Source of the DNA: an uncultured Bacilli bacterium
Lineage (GTDB): Bacteria; Bacillota_I; Bacilli_A; RF39; UBA660
NCBI GenBank assembly: GCA_944332555.1
Contig: CALVKF010000003.1
Location: 1 to 62,437 of the forward strand
Direction: 5' to 3'
Length of the DNA stretch: 62,437 bases
A program made the position numbers and the translations under genes. The notes beneath the pieces are model-generated. The model did no database searches and was not told the DNA's origin. It saw nothing but the letters and a program-made list of their open reading frames with translations. Position 1 is the stretch's first letter, and every line of letters begins with the position of its first letter. This document shows positions 1,325 to 62,101 of this stretch, in pieces.

Positions 1325-1905
1325 TTATCCCTCCTTAAAAACTTATATAAAAATGATACATTAGTTGAATGATACACTTCACTAAGCTCTTTTATAATAT
1401 TCATATTTAATTTTTCTAATTCTTCTTCATAAATTCTTAAATCATACAACAATAAATTCTTCATTTGTTCTATATTTTTAACAGGACTTAATGTGTATAA
1501 CTTATCACATAGTGCTTTTTCTTTTGTTGCCAAATGAAAAGTATATCCATTTTCTTCTATTAAATTAACATAAAGTGGAAAAACTCTTTCTGGAACATCT
1601 CGATATATTAGAGTTCCAAATGGTGTGTTATAAGTCCTTTTCTTATTTTTATTAAATGTTGCACATGTAACAACCTCTACTCTCTCAAGTATTAAACCAT
1701 AAAAAGACAAAGCAAAATCAAATGAGATATAAGATGGTCCATATATAAAATTAGCTAAATAATATGCTGGAGTATTGGGATTAGTTTCATATAATCCCTT
1801 CTTAATTTTAATTAACTTTCCTTCTTTAACATCTCTAGCCAACTTCGTATCTTTATTAATATAATTTATATACTTATTCTTTTGAATATTATTTGAAACT
1901 ACCAT
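1321..1905 (-). CDS. abiEi: AbiEi-family antitoxin / transcriptional autoregulator
   Basis: KEGKLIKIKKGLYE and GPSYISFDFALSFYGLI match the AbiEi pattern. Start moved to ATG 1905, preceded by GGAGGAAAT; the track start at 1953 has no RBS. Confidence 0.75.
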   Translation of the reverse strand: MVVSNNIQKNKYINYINKDTKLARDVKEGKLIKIKKGLYETNPNTPAYYLANFIYGPSYISFDFALSFYGLILERVEVVTCATFNKNKKRTYNTPFGTLIYRDVPERVFPLYVNLIEENGYTFHLATKEKALCDKLYTLSPVKNIEQMKNLLLYDLRIYEEELEKLNMNIIKELSEVYHSTNVSFLYKFLRRDK

Positions 1906-1919
1906 ATTTCCTCCTCTAA

Positions 1920-1953
1920 TTATCATTATATGATAAATTCCGGAGGAAATCAA
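1920..1953 (-). promoter_or_regulatory. abiE promoter TTGATT-N17-TATAAT with inverted repeat TTATCAT-N3-ATGATAA (1920-1936) over the -10
   Basis: -35 at 1948-1953 and -10 at 1925-1930, read on the minus strand. The palindrome overlaps the -10 and the transcription start. AbiEi proteins are known autorepressors that bind promoter inverted repeats. Confidence 0.5.
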
Positions 1954-1977
1954 GTAATTTTTGCTTTTTTAAACAAA

Positions 1978-2015
1978 GAAAGCGACCGCGCTGTCAAGTC
2001 AGCACGACCGCTTTC
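1978..2015. other. GC-rich imperfect hairpin (GAAAGCG...CGCTTTC arms) in an otherwise AT-rich spacer between ncRNA unit A and the abiE promoter
   Basis: A 7-bp perfect stem base plus further interrupted pairs. On the minus strand it is followed by TTTGTTT. It may act as a read-through terminator or insulator. Confidence 0.35.
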
Positions 2016-2121
2016 TAAATATAATATATTACATTTTATAATATTAATCAATAGTTATTTACTAAAAAAGACAAAACACATATAAATATCTTGTGCTGTT
2101 TCTTATGTTGTTTTATAAAAT

Positions 2122-2438
2122 CAATTAAAAAAGGAATTAGATGTACAATACCTAGAATTATAAATAATTCGTCACTGATTTAAAAAATCTAATTCCTTTT
2201 TATTTACTTATATATTTTTATATAAGTATTCTATTAACTATATATGGGCTTGGGCTACAATTGCCTGTGCCATAAATAATTAATAGGTTTAAAAGAGTTC
2301 TAGTCTCTGCGTCTAATGCATAAATCCCTAGACTAACGCCCGAAACGAGCAGAGATACAAACTCTTTTCAAAAAGAAACCACCAAAGTACCTGTTATCAA
2401 AAATGATAAGTCTCTCCTATAAAACGGCTTCTTTCTCT
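2122..2438 (-). ncRNA. Unassigned structured non-coding transcription unit A (~320 nt)
   Basis: The promoter is TTGACA (2468-2473), N17, TGG-TATATT (2445-2450). No ORF exceeds 11 codons on either strand. Helix AAAGAAGCC/GGTTTCTTT encloses ATAGGAGAGA, a hairpin, then AGGTACTTTG. The 3' long stem AGGAATTAGAT/ATCTAATTCCT (2132-2197) encloses GTGACGAATTAT..ATAATTCTAGG and is followed by a U-tract. Confidence 0.55.
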
Positions 2439-2483
2439 ATAAAGAATATACCATAAAATTTATTATATGTCAATCGTCTTTGT

Positions 2484-2864
2484 AAAAAAATAAAAAGGGA
2501 TTAGACAAACAGTCCCTAGAATTAATAATTATTATTAATTCGTCACCGATGTAATATCTAATCCCTTTTTAAATGAAACAATAGCAATTGCCATCAAGTA
2601 CTAATTAATATTGCTTCATTTAAACAAATTTTGCCATTGCGTTCAATACCGTCGCAACGGGAAAATTTGTTATTAAGACTCTTGCTATTGCTTCTGATAC
2701 CTATTGTCCCAGATTTAAACGCCTTATAACGACAACAGTACAAGTCCTTGAATAAAAGGAACCGTCAAAGTACCTAGCACAAATAGTGCATCACTCCTAT
2801 TAACCCATTTCCTTTTATTTTTATAGATTGGCCCTAACCCATACGGGTTACGACCAATCTAACT
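2484..2864 (-). ncRNA. Unassigned structured non-coding transcription unit B (~380 nt), paralog of unit A
   Basis: The promoter is TTGACA (2894-2899), N17, TGC-TATAAT (2871-2876). Helix ATAAAAGGAA/TTCCTTTTAT encloses ATAGGAGTGA, a hairpin, then AGGTACTTTG. The 3' stem AGGGATTAGA/TCTAATCCCT (2496-2566) encloses GTGACGAATTA..TAATTCTAGG and is followed by a U-tract. The central part is unrelated to unit A. Confidence 0.55.
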
Positions 2865-2900
2865 AATTTAATTATAGCATCGATTTTATTATATGTCAAC

Positions 2901-2927
2901 AAAAACAAAGCTCCCTATTTGGGAACT
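2901..2927 (-). terminator. Rho-independent terminator-like hairpin (AGTTCCC/GGGAGCT, then TTGTTTTT) immediately upstream of the unit B promoter
   Basis: 7-bp stem including one G-U pair, 5-nt loop, T-rich tail on the minus strand. Confidence 0.5.
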
Positions 2928-2980
2928 TCAAGATATTACTCTTCAATATCGTTAGTAAACTAATACTAGATTGATATCGA

Positions 2981-3024
2981 AAAAAAAATAATCATGTACT
3001 TAAGTAATACCTGTAGTACATGAT
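2981..3024 (-). terminator. Rho-independent terminator of the yihY-like gene
   Basis: 10-bp stem ATCATGTACT/AGTACATGAT followed by T8 on the minus strand, 9 nt after the stop codon. Confidence 0.8.
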
Positions 3025-3032
3025 ATTATTAT

Positions 3033-3893
3033 TTACTTATTATTCGTTTTTATAGAACCTGTTTTTTCCAATTCTACTTCTTCTTTACGATAGTTTAGAG
3101 CCATACCAATTGTAAATACATAAGCAAGTATGTATATCCAGATCATTAACATGACAATATTGGCAAGACTTCCATAAAATGTTGAGTAGTATGCAATATT
3201 ATTGATATAAAATGAATAACCATAAGTTATAAGTATCCAAGAAATACTTGTAAATATTGCCCCATATCCGACATTTTTACTCTTTATTCTTTTATTCGGA
3301 GCAATAGTATAAAGTATTTTTATAAAGAAATACATTATTAACCAAGTAACAGGACCTTGTAATAATCTTATAATAGTTGTTACTTTATCAGTAATTGAAC
3401 TATTTAAATCAACATATTGAAATAATTCTATAATTTTATCCCCAAAAATGGGAACTATTAACATGAAAATGAAAAGTAATACTAAAAATATTGTCATAAT
3501 AATTGATTTTAATCTTCTTTTAAAGAAACCCGTTTGCTTTTCGCCATATATAGCATTAGATGTAATAATAATTGATGCTGGTCCATTGGATGCCGTATAG
3601 TAACCGACAATCAAAGTTATTACTAAACCCCAACCTGAAGCATTTGATTCGGGAAGATTTAATAGCATTGCTGCAATATCTTCTGAAAAAGCATTAGCTA
3701 AAAAATCATATATTATGTCTGTTGATAAATTAAGTAAACTTGCTCCATAACTAATAAGGGTTATAGTAGGAACAATAGCAAGCACAAAGAAAAAGGCCAG
3801 TTGTCCAGGAAGTATTGCCATCTCCGGCCTTTTTAAAACTTTTATAAAATTATCAAAAAATTCTTTAACCTCACTTTTTAACTTCTTTTTCAT
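3033..3893 (-). CDS. YihY/BrkB (ribonuclease BN-like) family integral membrane protein
   Basis: About 6 TM helices. N-terminus KRPEMAILPGQLAFFFVLAIVP is typical of the family. Confidence 0.8.
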   Translation of the reverse strand: MKKKLKSEVKEFFDNFIKVLKRPEMAILPGQLAFFFVLAIVPTITLISYGASLLNLSTDIIYDFLANAFSEDIAAMLLNLPESNASGWGLVITLIVGYYTASNGPASIIITSNAIYGEKQTGFFKRRLKSIIMTIFLVLLFIFMLIVPIFGDKIIELFQYVDLNSSITDKVTTIIRLLQGPVTWLIMYFFIKILYTIAPNKRIKSKNVGYGAIFTSISWILITYGYSFYINNIAYYSTFYGSLANIVMLMIWIYILAYVFTIGMALNYRKEEVELEKTGSIKTNNK

Positions 3894-5892
3894 TTTTTAT
3901 GGCACCCTTTTGTTTCTTCATATCTTCAACCGCTTCATTCATGGCATCTTCAATAGTTTTTATATCATCATCTATCACGCTGTAGCCGAATTCTGCTCCA
4001 AAGTCATACGGTAATTTCTTTATTTCTTTATTTAATTTATGAATATAATTAGTTATTTGTTTTTGATTATAACCCACTAAATAAATAACAAATTCATTAC
4101 CATCAGTACGCATTATTTCACTATTATCAAGTTGTGTCTTAATTAATACATTAGCACATGCTTTAATTTGTTTATCCCCTTCATTATAACCATTTAAATC
4201 ATTAATTTCTTGTATTTTATTTAAATCTACTACGATTATAGTTTGTGGATAAATTGTATTATTATTCCATGTTGCAATATTTTCGTTTAAATAATTTCTA
4301 TTTTTTAAAGATGTTAATTGATCAATAAATTTCATTTTATCATCTTTTTTAATCTTTCTCGCAATAGAAATCTTTTTACTTTTACGAATAATTATTAGAG
4401 CAATAATTATAGCTATAATTACCGCATATAAAATGTATTCAGCTATTTTTGTAACAATTCCGCCACTTTGAACAGTTTCACTATGGTTATTAAGTCCTTC
4501 TAAAATTATTTCATCTTGATCTAGAAAACTTACATATTTATCAAGTAAATTATATAATGCACTATCAGTTCTTACTTTAAAATTATATTCATCGGCGATA
4601 TAATCACTATATCTTGCTGAATAGTTATCTAACTCATCCAAACTATAATAATCAAAAGTATTTTTATCTATTACTAATATTACATCTCTTTTATTTAATT
4701 TAAATAAATCTTTTGTTGTACTAAATGTTTCAACATTTATACCATTAATATTGCTAATATAATCATATATTTTAGAGTTTTCTTGTACATATACAGTTTC
4801 TCCAATTAAAGAATTAATTGATTTTATAACCATATTATTATCTTTTCTAACTGCCACACTATATTCGATATTTATCCCATTTGTAGCATTAAAATTATCG
4901 GAATAATTATAATAATTAAAATATAAATCGACATCGCCATTTTCTACAGCATTCATAAATCTATCATAATTACGGTATTTTTCAAAATTAAATTCAACTC
5001 CCGCAAAATCACTGAATTTACTTAAAACAACTGCAGCAATTCCGCCATATTTACCTCCCATAATAACTTCATAAGGAGATGCATTAACAAAACCATAGTT
5101 ATATTCAATACTTTGCATCGAATCTATTTCCGTTGCTGATATATTTAAAGAAGTTGTAAAAGTATTAAATAATGCTTCGTTATATAATGTATCAATTTCT
5201 TCCCAATTATTATAAAATTTTCTTAAAATGCTACTTAAAGTATCATCTGTAGTTTGCATTGTATAATATATTTTAATATCACTAAAATGGTATAAGATAT
5301 TATAATTATTACTTAAAATAGTATCTAAATAATAAGTTAAAGGTACTATAGCATAAGTTACATCACTGCCAATTGCATTAAATAATTCTTCACTAGATTC
5401 ATATTGGGTAAATGTAATATTGGTAGAATTTATATAAGTTGATACATAACTTAAATCACTAGTTAAAATACCTATTGTTCTACCTATTAAATCATCAGTA
5501 TCACTAATTATTTCATTATTAGTACCAATTAACGCATAATGATCTGTAAAAAATACTACATCATTATTTCCTACACTAGTTTTAGCACCTAGTGTTATAC
5601 CTGATGGATTAGTTCCATTTCTAAAAGTAATTGGATTGATATTTAAACCATATTCTTCTTCGAAATCTTCTATAAAGCCATAAAATACTCCACTACCATT
5701 TTTACCAAAAACATTAGCATCATCCAAAACATTAATATTTGGTACGGTATTAATATTTTCATTTATCCAATTGCGTTCTGCAACAGTCAATTTATTTTCA
5801 TCATTTAAAAGAAAATATAAAAGGATTGCAATACCTATAACAACAATTGCACTTACAACTATAACAATTATATTTCGTCTTTTTTTCATCAC
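3871..5892 (-). CDS. Membrane sensor with two extracytoplasmic solute-binding-like repeats, a second TM helix and a C-terminal degenerate GGDEF domain
   Basis: N-terminal TM helix, then a second TM helix (YILYAVIIAIIIALIII). The GGDEF-fold tail reads LTSLKNRNYL...MRTDGNEFVIYL, so the active-site motif is DGNEF rather than GG(D/E)EF. Confidence 0.7.
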   Translation of the reverse strand: MMKKRRNIIVIVVSAIVVIGIAILLYFLLNDENKLTVAERNWINENINTVPNINVLDDANVFGKNGSGVFYGFIEDFEEEYGLNINPITFRNGTNPSGITLGAKTSVGNNDVVFFTDHYALIGTNNEIISDTDDLIGRTIGILTSDLSYVSTYINSTNITFTQYESSEELFNAIGSDVTYAIVPLTYYLDTILSNNYNILYHFSDIKIYYTMQTTDDTLSSILRKFYNNWEEIDTLYNEALFNTFTTSLNISATEIDSMQSIEYNYGFVNASPYEVIMGGKYGGIAAVVLSKFSDFAGVEFNFEKYRNYDRFMNAVENGDVDLYFNYYNYSDNFNATNGINIEYSVAVRKDNNMVIKSINSLIGETVYVQENSKIYDYISNINGINVETFSTTKDLFKLNKRDVILVIDKNTFDYYSLDELDNYSARYSDYIADEYNFKVRTDSALYNLLDKYVSFLDQDEIILEGLNNHSETVQSGGIVTKIAEYILYAVIIAIIIALIIIRKSKKISIARKIKKDDKMKFIDQLTSLKNRNYLNENIATWNNNTIYPQTIIVVDLNKIQEINDLNGYNEGDKQIKACANVLIKTQLDNSEIMRTDGNEFVIYLVGYNQKQITNYIHKLNKEIKKLPYDFGAEFGYSVIDDDIKTIEDAMNEAVEDMKKQKGAIKNEKEVKK

Positions 5893-6428: not shown

Positions 6429-9318
<2,890 letters not shown>

Positions 9319-47076: not shown

Positions 47077-47424
47077 ATAATTCTTTATAAGCCATGTTCT
47101 GTACTTTCTTACGAAAGTGGCAAATATTTATCTCCTGCAAGCAGGCCCTATTTCAGTTTGATTCCTGAAATAGAACTCCCCTACCATAATTTGGGTTTCT
47201 CACTCGTGGGGTTTACCGCGTTCCACTTAGCTTGTTTCCAAACTAACTCGTCTCTATGGCACTTTATGTTTACTAAAACCATTTGACAGGTTTCCTCAAC
47301 GCCGTTAGCCTAAGCTACCCTAGGTTATTTTTTCCCTAGGCACGAACACTACAAACATCACAGCTTGTGTGAGCATGGACTTTCCTCTACATTACAATAT
47401 ATGCAGCATTTGCCCAAGAATTAT
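47077..47424 (-). ncRNA. rnpB: RNase P RNA, type B
   Basis: On the minus strand: GAGGAAAGTCCATGCTC (P4 5' strand), GTGGAACGCGGTAAACCCC, ACAGAACATGGCTTA (P4 3' strand). P1 pairs ATAATTCTT with AAGAATTAT. It is adjacent to gpsB as in B. subtilis. Confidence 0.93.
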
Positions 47425-62015: not shown

Positions 62016-62101
62016 TGGTGCCCGAGGTCGGACTTGAACCGACATGGTATTGCTACCAACGGATTTTGAGTCCGCCGCGTCTACCATTCCACCACTCGGG
62101 C
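62016..62101 (-). tRNA. tRNA-Leu (anticodon CAA) with long variable arm and encoded CCA
   Basis: Minus strand: GCCCGAG acceptor pairs with CTCGGGC, followed by ACCA. Anticodon loop CTCAAAA, variable arm GTTGGTAGCAATACCATG, T-loop GGTTCAAGTCC. Confidence 0.96.

Follow-up and report, generated by a model that had tools for sequence, protein, structure and literature searches.

Introduction

A convergent antisense RNA encoded beside a toxin-like gene is a well-known class of bacterial regulatory mechanism. Type I toxin-antitoxin pairs whose RNAs converge and overlap at their 3' ends include the par locus of Enterococcus faecalis pAD1, in which the Fst mRNA, RNA I, and the antisense RNA II share a bidirectional terminator, and the txpA/RatA and bsrG/SR4 pairs of Bacillus subtilis. 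The toxin of a classical type I pair is a hydrophobic membrane peptide of fewer than 60 amino acids (aa). SymE/SymR and RalR/RalA of Escherichia coli are type I systems with nuclease-like toxins; in the former the overlap is with the 5' end of symE, and in the latter RalA is a trans-pairing RNA helped by Hfq. Listeria LhrC1-5 and the streptococcal csRNAs are multicopy small RNAs (sRNAs) with genus-wide conservation and short seed regions. Here, we describe two tandem units, A and B, each running from promoter to terminator, on the minus strand of a 0.8-kb intergenic region (2122-2927) in a 62,437-nucleotide (nt) stretch of DNA from an uncultured Bacilli bacterium, called the window below. Hairpin homology and gene geometry indicate that both units very probably descend from the cis-antisense sRNA of a cassette encoding a predicted HExxH-PBECR3 nuclease. 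Related sequences are designated by contig labels (L001-L144) and proteins by P labels.

The predicted ancestral RNA resembles the antitoxins of par, txpA/RatA and bsrG/SR4 in being small, strongly promoted, non-coding and convergent with a putative toxin gene, in sharing its 3' end and terminator with that gene over about 80 nt of perfect complementarity, and in belonging to mobile or variable DNA in which orphan and duplicated antitoxin RNAs occur. As in type I systems, the RNA is predicted to be non-coding and to have its own promoter, terminator and conserved structure; an adjacent antisense toxin-like gene is absent from the window and present in L141-L144 and L019. In contrast to the classical peptides, the partner is a predicted RNase of 290-345 aa with HExxH and PBECR3 regions, and the window RNAs, at 315-380 nt, differ from known type I antitoxins in carrying additional modules (motif M, region X and hairpin H0) and in being known here from sequence alone. 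The coupling of a base-pairing sRNA to a nuclease-type toxin recalls SymE/SymR and RalR/RalA, but the overlap lies at the 3' end and no sequence or Rfam relationship exists. LhrC1-5 and the csRNAs are likewise tandem paralogous sRNA genes, each with a consensus promoter and an intrinsic terminator, whereas the units described here are far longer, pair over nearly their entire length and occur in a single species-level clade.

In the conflict and polyvalent proteins of phages and conjugative elements, PBECR domains are predicted to be RNases and are often joined to a metallopeptidase (MPTase) domain (Iyer et al. 2017, PMC5512222). The partner protein described here carries PF18812 together with an N-terminal HExxH motif, and MPTase joined to PBECR is a typical combination in that paper; unlike those polyvalent proteins, it is a short, chromosomal, two-domain protein of gut Bacilli, and no relative was found among viral contigs. 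No RNA partner for PBECR3 was found in the literature, where four papers mentioning PBECR were listed, and none is mentioned in the PBECR passages of PMC5512222.

Results

Unit A shares a branched hairpin with convergent PBECR3 cassettes

The center of unit A is a branched hairpin, H_A (2286..2369, minus strand), that is 92-94% identical to copies linked to PBECR3 genes in other contigs. Positions 2273-2368 of the window are 91.7% identical to L141 1021-1114, and the corresponding value for L142 is 93.7%. Intact PBECR3 homologues of 291-345 aa are encoded by four contigs (L141-L144) in at least two other genomic neighborhoods, the sites being that of L141, one next to TK-RecO-Era in L142 and L143, and one next to DUF421/TGT in L144. 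The proteins (P0121, P0122 and P0124) possess an N-terminal HExxH motif (HEITH or HELTH). A further homologue lies in L019 at the same locus as the window units, where a reverse-oriented, 5'-truncated open reading frame (ORF) encodes the C-terminal half of a PBECR3 protein without a start codon (PF18812, E 3e-13) and overlaps, at its 3' end, an RNA of the unit A type. P0121 (345 aa) is 83% identical to this fragment, and P0122 and P0124 are 56-62% identical to it. The HExxH-PBECR3 proteins resemble miniature versions of the metallopeptidase-RNase 'polyvalent' proteins at chromosomal sites; in L142 and L143 the gene is seemingly split into parts of 166-226 aa and 109 aa.

In all four contigs a convergent promoter, a leader of sequence ATTTATAG, H_A and a U-run face the PBECR3 gene. 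The sRNA predicted from this arrangement is 82-84 nt long and is antisense to the nuclease gene over its terminator and the final 2-36 nt of its coding sequence (CDS). The promoter type and spacing of unit B also precede the PBECR3-linked sRNA in L141, L142 and L144, and in L144 the -35 and -10 boxes and their 17-nt spacing are retained despite a DNA identity of 69.5%. Across ten distinct sequences of H_A, the 28 base pairs are formed in 98.9% of cells and four pairs have changed on both sides. None of 500 shuffled controls reached this level of covariation, and pairing falls to 31-56% in slid controls.

The match to H_A in the window reaches about 15 nt into the former end of the PBECR3 CDS. 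A tblastn search of the window recovered no PBECR3 gene and only H_A matched; the list of ORFs contains no other gene convergent with the units. Thus, both units are orphans. A covariance model built from H_A (R2) identified a second branched hairpin, H_B (2668..2752, minus strand; 22.9 bits, E 0.003), as its best sense-strand match in the 62 kb apart from H_A itself. An earlier note on this DNA had described the centers of the two units as unrelated; rather, the first central hairpin of unit B is a diverged homologue of that of unit A, so that the units are paralogous along their whole length.

Each unit has a consensus promoter, an intrinsic terminator and two copies of motif M

A promoter scan of the minus strand, which was read over 1900-3300, identified TTGACA-17-TATAAT with an extended TG at 2899..2871 in unit B (12 of 12 consensus matches) and TTGACA-17-TATATT with TG at 2473..2445 in unit A (11 of 12), in agreement with the -35 region, exact 17-nt spacing and extended -10 that had been noted in both units. 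The 15-mer TTGACATATAATAAA common to the two -35 regions occurs exactly twice in 62 kb, both times in the units. An intrinsic terminator closes each unit, yielding predicted RNAs of the length given above, and a terminator scan and an inverted-repeat search located the terminators proposed upstream of the pair at 2906-2930 and 2981-3034. The repeat search also picked up the blocks common to the two units and numerous other long inverted repeats.

A covariance model (R1) derived solely from five distinct 3' modules finds both 5' modules ahead of everything else in the window besides the 3' modules. Alignment to this model reveals a single hairpin motif, M, with four occurrences: the 5' module of unit B (2746..2817; 30.7 bits, E 6e-5), its 3' module and terminator with U-run (2485..2570; 87.8 bits), the 5' module of unit A (2363..2436; 37.9 bits, E 8e-7), which is missing from unit A of L004, and the 3' module and terminator of unit A with U-run (2121..2201; 99.8 bits), all on the minus strand. 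M consists of an A-rich strand, a 5-bp helix, GNGAY, a hairpin of 4-6 bp, YAGG followed by KAYU, and a U-rich strand with a U-run, and every copy looks like an intrinsic terminator. The sequence of the inner hairpin varies from copy to copy (GAAUUA, UUAUCA, GCAC) with pairing always kept, and one-sided changes in M stems always produce G.U and never A.C. The core of the 3' module, GTGACGAATT..AATTCTAGG, occurs twice in 62 kb, with zero occurrences expected by chance; exact matches to AGGTACTTTG are confined to 2383-2392 and 2766-2775.

The order of elements in a unit is promoter, (H0), M, H, extra hairpins and M. H0, with which unit B begins (2824..2861, minus strand), is a 17-bp hairpin that is 88% complementary as an inverted repeat, forms in the minimum free energy (MFE) fold and also occurs in the B-type unit of L019, B''. 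The extra hairpins of unit B are two long, near-perfect hairpins at 2568..2671 on the minus strand, with 19-nt arms 89% complementary and 22-nt arms 86% complementary, both seen in the MFE fold; those of unit A form region X (2207..2287, minus strand), two unit-A-specific hairpins in the MFE fold with no homologue in the PBECR3 loci. A similarity test gave no support to the idea that M is a diverged copy of H (p 0.34). We know of no convincing likeness, as judged by eye, between the M loop and K-turn, RAT, PyrR, TRAP or HutP sites.

Folding and substitution patterns suggest structural constraint

Both units are predicted to fold far more stably than dinucleotide-shuffled controls, with MFE values of -92.6 kcal/mol for unit A (z -6.76) and -128.6 kcal/mol for unit B (z -10.21). 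The antisense strands reach only -73.7 and -93.6 kcal/mol, respectively, a difference of 19-35 kcal/mol, and the sense folds contain 12 (unit A) and 17 (unit B) G.U pairs. This advantage of the sense folds is consistent with a minus-strand RNA.

Among 13 distinct sequences of unit A, 10 substitutions fall at the 218 paired positions, seven of which keep pairing; the 96 unpaired positions carry 11 (Fisher p = 0.046). Structural selection is modestly supported by these counts. The helices that close the 5' modules differ in sequence between the units and both pair, as seen in inverted repeats and MFE folds, and the outer stems of the 3' modules are 15 bp long and 100% complementary (2128-2142/2187-2201 and 2491-2505/2557-2571). 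The A:U to G:C compensatory change that had been pointed out between them is real, and a G.U intermediate occurs in other strains (columns 8/74: AU 3, GU 1, GC 1). GNGAY and YAGG are kept across M copies. The loop bases proposed as conserved, ATAGGAG and AGGTAC, are polymorphic among strains, the former being ATAGTAG in several single-unit strains and the latter ATGTAC in L126. The density of TAGG in the units is approximately 6.6 times that of the window (8 occurrences against 3.0 expected in shuffles, p ~0.01). GGA is not enriched in the units, and a CsrA-type sponge is therefore unlikely.

The units are non-coding and match no known RNA family

The statement that the region lacks any ORF longer than 11 codons fails once TTG starts are counted, since ORFs of 49, 32 and 30 aa then appear. 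None of these is preceded by a Shine-Dalgarno sequence, and in strain L019 a stop after nine codons breaks the 49-aa frame; the description of the units as non-coding therefore stands. No credible coding frame was found in the window units among the small ORFs, nor under genetic code 4. With these results, the promoters, terminators, stable folds and paralogous modules establish two tandem paralogous non-coding units, as had been proposed.

A search of the window with the Rfam covariance models likewise bears out that the units match no known RNA family, among them RNase P, tmRNA, SRP, 6S, T-box, riboswitches, ROOL, GOLLD, raiA and OLE. At the gathering threshold the whole window yields only RNase P RNA and a tRNA, both outside the units; a class B RNase P RNA (47083-47421, minus strand; 300.6 bits) and the tRNA (62019-62101, minus strand), together with a G+C content of 25.8%, fit a low-GC Bacillota host. 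With E values of up to 10 only noise is recovered, the best match in 1850-3100 scoring 23 bits against a threshold of 48.4 and belonging to an unrelated plastid family. A symR match (16.8 bits, E 3.6) is noise and lies outside the units. Candidate antisense targets in the window are limited to 11-15-mers at chance level, with no long one. A riboswitch or other cis-regulatory leader was rejected: in single-unit strains the next gene either is convergent, encoding a helix-turn-helix (HTH) protein, or lies behind a strong hairpin, and each unit is terminated.

The units occupy a cargo hot spot in a single species-level clade

An exact-protein look-up of the upstream BrkB recovered ten metagenome contigs of near-identical strains. 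When one genome per GTDB species was scanned for the 3' core, three of 25 matches were real, all of them at the same locus after brkB, in Candidatus Onthocola stercorigallinarum, an uncultured Bacilli metagenome-assembled genome and the 'uncultured Tenericutes' UMGS910. Each of these three carriers has a single locus per genome, and the units are thus not a dispersed repeat. Exact-pattern scans of viral contigs for the 3' and 5' cores gave five matches, all due to chance and located in coding or GC-rich DNA. The 62 matches from a scan of JGI metagenomes for the 5' core all lack the hairpin, the 3' module and a fitting base composition, and a blastn search in distant mode of phage and plasmid collections found no match to the units. 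The core sequences were also not found in the first 200 of the 408 supplementary files of a catalogue of structured RNAs from the human microbiome (PMC8040213).

At BrkB orthologues of 87, 81, 78 and 75% identity, the upstream order LigA, GGDEF, BrkB is kept and the units are absent. Across the genus-level group, the interval between BrkB and LytR contains Fic, AbiE, PBECR3, IS110, IS200, or an XRE-type HTH protein with a large fn3-like protein, or is near-empty; examples are Fic in L043-L048, IS110 in L049 and an empty interval of 212 nt in L050, and the comparison also covered L053-L057. This distribution marks the units as having been inserted recently, at a cargo hot spot within one species-level clade.

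Four architectures were observed among the carriers. The window has unit B, unit A and AbiE. Unit A alone, without AbiE, is present in L025 and in all 11 sampled contigs of BrkB alleles P0007 and P0015 (L120-L130); these strains come from several studies. L004 has a mini unit, composed of a promoter and a 3' module, followed by a unit A that lacks the 5' module, and no AbiE. Finally, L019 has a mini unit, a truncated unit A, the reverse gene fragment, the B-type unit B'' with a different terminator, and AbiE. In length and leader, this mini unit matches the PBECR3-linked RNA in both L004 and L019, with M replacing H. Thus, the view of the units as a functional RNA family with conserved ends and a variable center needs revision: they are structured paralogous RNAs, as that view holds, but each end is a copy of the same motif, nearly identical strains have gained or lost modules, and the distribution covers one clade and one locus.

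Discussion

A model for the origin of units A and B

The ancestral form would have been an RNA of approximately 83 nt, comprising a strong sigma-A-type promoter, the leader AUUUAUAG, the branched hairpin H and a U-run, that was transcribed convergently with a gene for a predicted HExxH and PBECR3 RNase of 290-345 aa. Hairpin H is predicted to act as a bidirectional terminator for both the sRNA and the nuclease mRNA. If H ends both transcripts, the two RNAs would therefore be perfectly complementary along some 80 nt, among them the final 2-36 nt of the nuclease CDS. By analogy with the 3'-overlapping type I pairs, an abundant sRNA would form a duplex with the nuclease mRNA and cause its degradation or silencing, and convergent transcription may aid this silencing. 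In the window, the nuclease gene would have been deleted, with about 15 nt of its 3' end left beside H_A, and the sRNA gene duplicated to give A and B with diverged hairpins H_A and H_B. M would have been added to both units, one copy between leader and H and one as the final terminator. At present the units may act in trans, as orphan antitoxin or 'immunity' RNAs, to silence PBECR3-type mRNAs that come from elsewhere in the genome or with mobile elements, or their decay may be under way.

We hold the descent of the units from the antisense sRNA of a nuclease cassette, with the geometry described above, to be very probable; that descent taken together with silencing of a type-I-like kind by this family of RNAs is a more ambitious statement, for and against which the sequence analysis is about evenly balanced. 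It would extend type-I-like antisense control to large predicted RNase effectors (PBECR3) and provide a concrete case of antitoxin-like RNAs that outlive their toxin gene, duplicate, and gain modules in a hot spot. It would also account for a 0.8-kb intergenic region that seems 'empty' in annotation. The earlier suggestion of a link to mobile or conflict elements holds in spirit; the partner seen in relatives is a PBECR3 gene and not AbiE.

Several observations weigh against this reading. Transcription of both units is predicted from their sequence, and the PBECR3 family itself is known from computational work (PMC5512222, PBECR passages). The convergent promoter could act by transcriptional interference alone, and H could matter solely as the terminator of the nuclease gene. 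No PBECR3 target is on hand for the genome of the window, and a present-day function is conjectural. Furthermore, modules are lost or reshuffled among strains with 95-100% identical BrkB, L004 lacking both 5' M copies and B'' of L019 having another terminator, and the polymorphism of loop bases described as conserved fits weak constraint. Finally, this reading does not account for M, which is not significantly similar to H.

Alternative explanations

The units could instead be decaying promoter and terminator debris, either still transcribed or silent and without present function, in a recombination hot spot that has lost its toxin or defense cargo. The turnover of the BrkB-LytR interval, where Fic, IS110, AbiE, PBECR3, IS200 or nothing may be found, is what such decay would leave, as are the four unit architectures among near-identical strains, a PBECR3 gene truncated in L019 and absent from the window, the variation of loop 'consensus' bases within the population, and the absence of units from sister species with BrkB no more than 87% identical. 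However, in every strain both promoters match the consensus fully or nearly so, substitutions are scarce in stems and mostly leave pairing intact, the four inner hairpins of M differ yet pair while the flanking GNGAY and YAGG are kept, and unit A persists as a single unit in many strains from several studies. We consider debris rather unlikely; if that is all the units are, the locus would still be a well-documented example of rapid turnover of promoter-terminator modules.

A second possibility is that the units are autonomous sRNAs, acting in trans or binding a protein, whose core is M, the long A/U-closed hairpin with its GNGAY/YAGG internal loop serving as a protein site or conditional terminator, and that PBECR3 ancestry is incidental. 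The window contains four copies of M with conserved loop bases and covarying inner hairpins, a minimal unit of promoter and M exists in L004 and L019, and TAGG is enriched in the units. Against this, M was found nowhere else, as the GTDB scan returned this locus only and matches to the 5' copy in JGI data were due to chance; some strains can dispense with M; no protein is known as a candidate binder; the lack of GGA enrichment speaks against a CsrA-type sponge; and the window holds no long antisense target. Such a role for M is unlikely.

The same low likelihood attaches to an 'RNA immunity array', in which H_A, H_B and perhaps M or other modules would be orphan antisense modules, each matching the terminator of a different mobile nuclease or toxin cassette and each kept for silencing PBECR-type effectors that arrive with phages or conjugative elements. 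Were it correct, it would define a new class of type-I-like system, in which a large HExxH-PBECR3 RNase is under the control of an RNA of about 83 nt, with M as a new functional RNA element.

It is very improbable that the units are elements acting at the level of DNA, either dispersed repeats of the miniature inverted-repeat transposable element (MITE) or repetitive extragenic palindromic (REP) type or attC-like folded sites that mediate cassette exchange. The way in which units come and go as modules in a cargo hot spot, the stem, bubble, stem and variable-tip layout of M, which recalls attC, and the insertion of IS200 into a nearby hairpin in L010 would suit such elements. But there is one locus per genome with no dispersed copies, no integrase is encoded among the neighbors, G.U pairs become mismatches on the other strand and the sense folds are the more stable by the margin given above, and a consensus promoter precedes each unit. 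Dispersed repeats of the MITE, REP or BOX type were ruled out by the occurrence of the motifs at this locus alone in the 62 kb and in the three GTDB genomes. An integron attC site was also rejected: the outer arms, ATTAGAT...ATCTAAT, correspond to RYYYAAC...GTTRRRY in reverse order at 6 of 7 positions, and no integrase lies nearby.

The idea in the earlier note that the units belong to the adjacent AbiE, as its RNA component, regulator or cis-acting leader, is scarcely credible, because adjacency in the window and about ten near-identical contigs is offset by units that occur without AbiE in L004, L025 and L120-L130, by an AbiE promoter and operator of its own, by two to three terminators, including a strong hairpin, between units and AbiE, and by the protein-protein (type IV) nature of AbiEi/AbiEii, for which no RNA partner is described in the titles and abstracts of the literature matches listed. 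The locus is a caution against assigning unit RNAs to a neighboring AbiE.

Other features of the locus

The intergenic region is flanked by a BrkB/YihY-family gene (3033-3893) and by abiEi (1321-1953) and abiEii (458-1324). The abiE promoter, TTGATT-17-TATAAT (1953..1925), overlaps a 21-nt inverted repeat, an operator (1906-1950) that is likely the site of AbiEi autoregulation. The longest AbiEi ORF starts with TTG and, at 210 aa, probably exceeds the true length; gene callers give 194 aa from 1905, and all exact copies of AbiEi in a protein look-up lie at this same locus. Outside the units, between them and AbiE, a terminator scan located a GC-rich, terminator-like hairpin of 17 bp (1977..2016, minus strand). 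It shows a compensatory U-A to C-G change among strains, abuts the 3' end of the HTH gene where AbiE is missing, and in some strains (L010, L133, L135) is the site of insertion of an IS200-type element (Y1_Tnp).

On the other side of the units, window 2940-3034 (minus strand) contains the BrkB terminator hairpin and an element of about 50 nt, GATATCAATCTAGTATTAGTTTACTAACGATATTGAAGAGTAATATC, that is nearly invariant at 75-87% BrkB identity (L041, L044, L049, L053). Conservation of this element is far above expectation for intergenic DNA, and it bounds the variable hot spot on the left; candidate identities are a small RNA, a 3' untranslated region element, and a recombination or att site. Tandem 12-nt repeats resembling ACAGCACAAGAT, in two to four copies, are present at window 2085-2110, at L041 ~5030-5085, and in L043 and L044. 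They follow unit A in the window and the second terminator in species without units, vary in copy number by strain, and may be operator or iteron-like sites. L001 has an extra insertion of about 84 nt (7770-7853), which includes a further small hairpin with a T-run, directly after the terminator of unit A. Additionally, three unrelated contigs (L067, L090, L110) share the stretch ATAGGAGNGA-CGAACTTCGGTTCC-AGGTACTTTG with a UUCG-type hairpin, which is probably a conserved piece of another gene or of rRNA and unrelated to the units.

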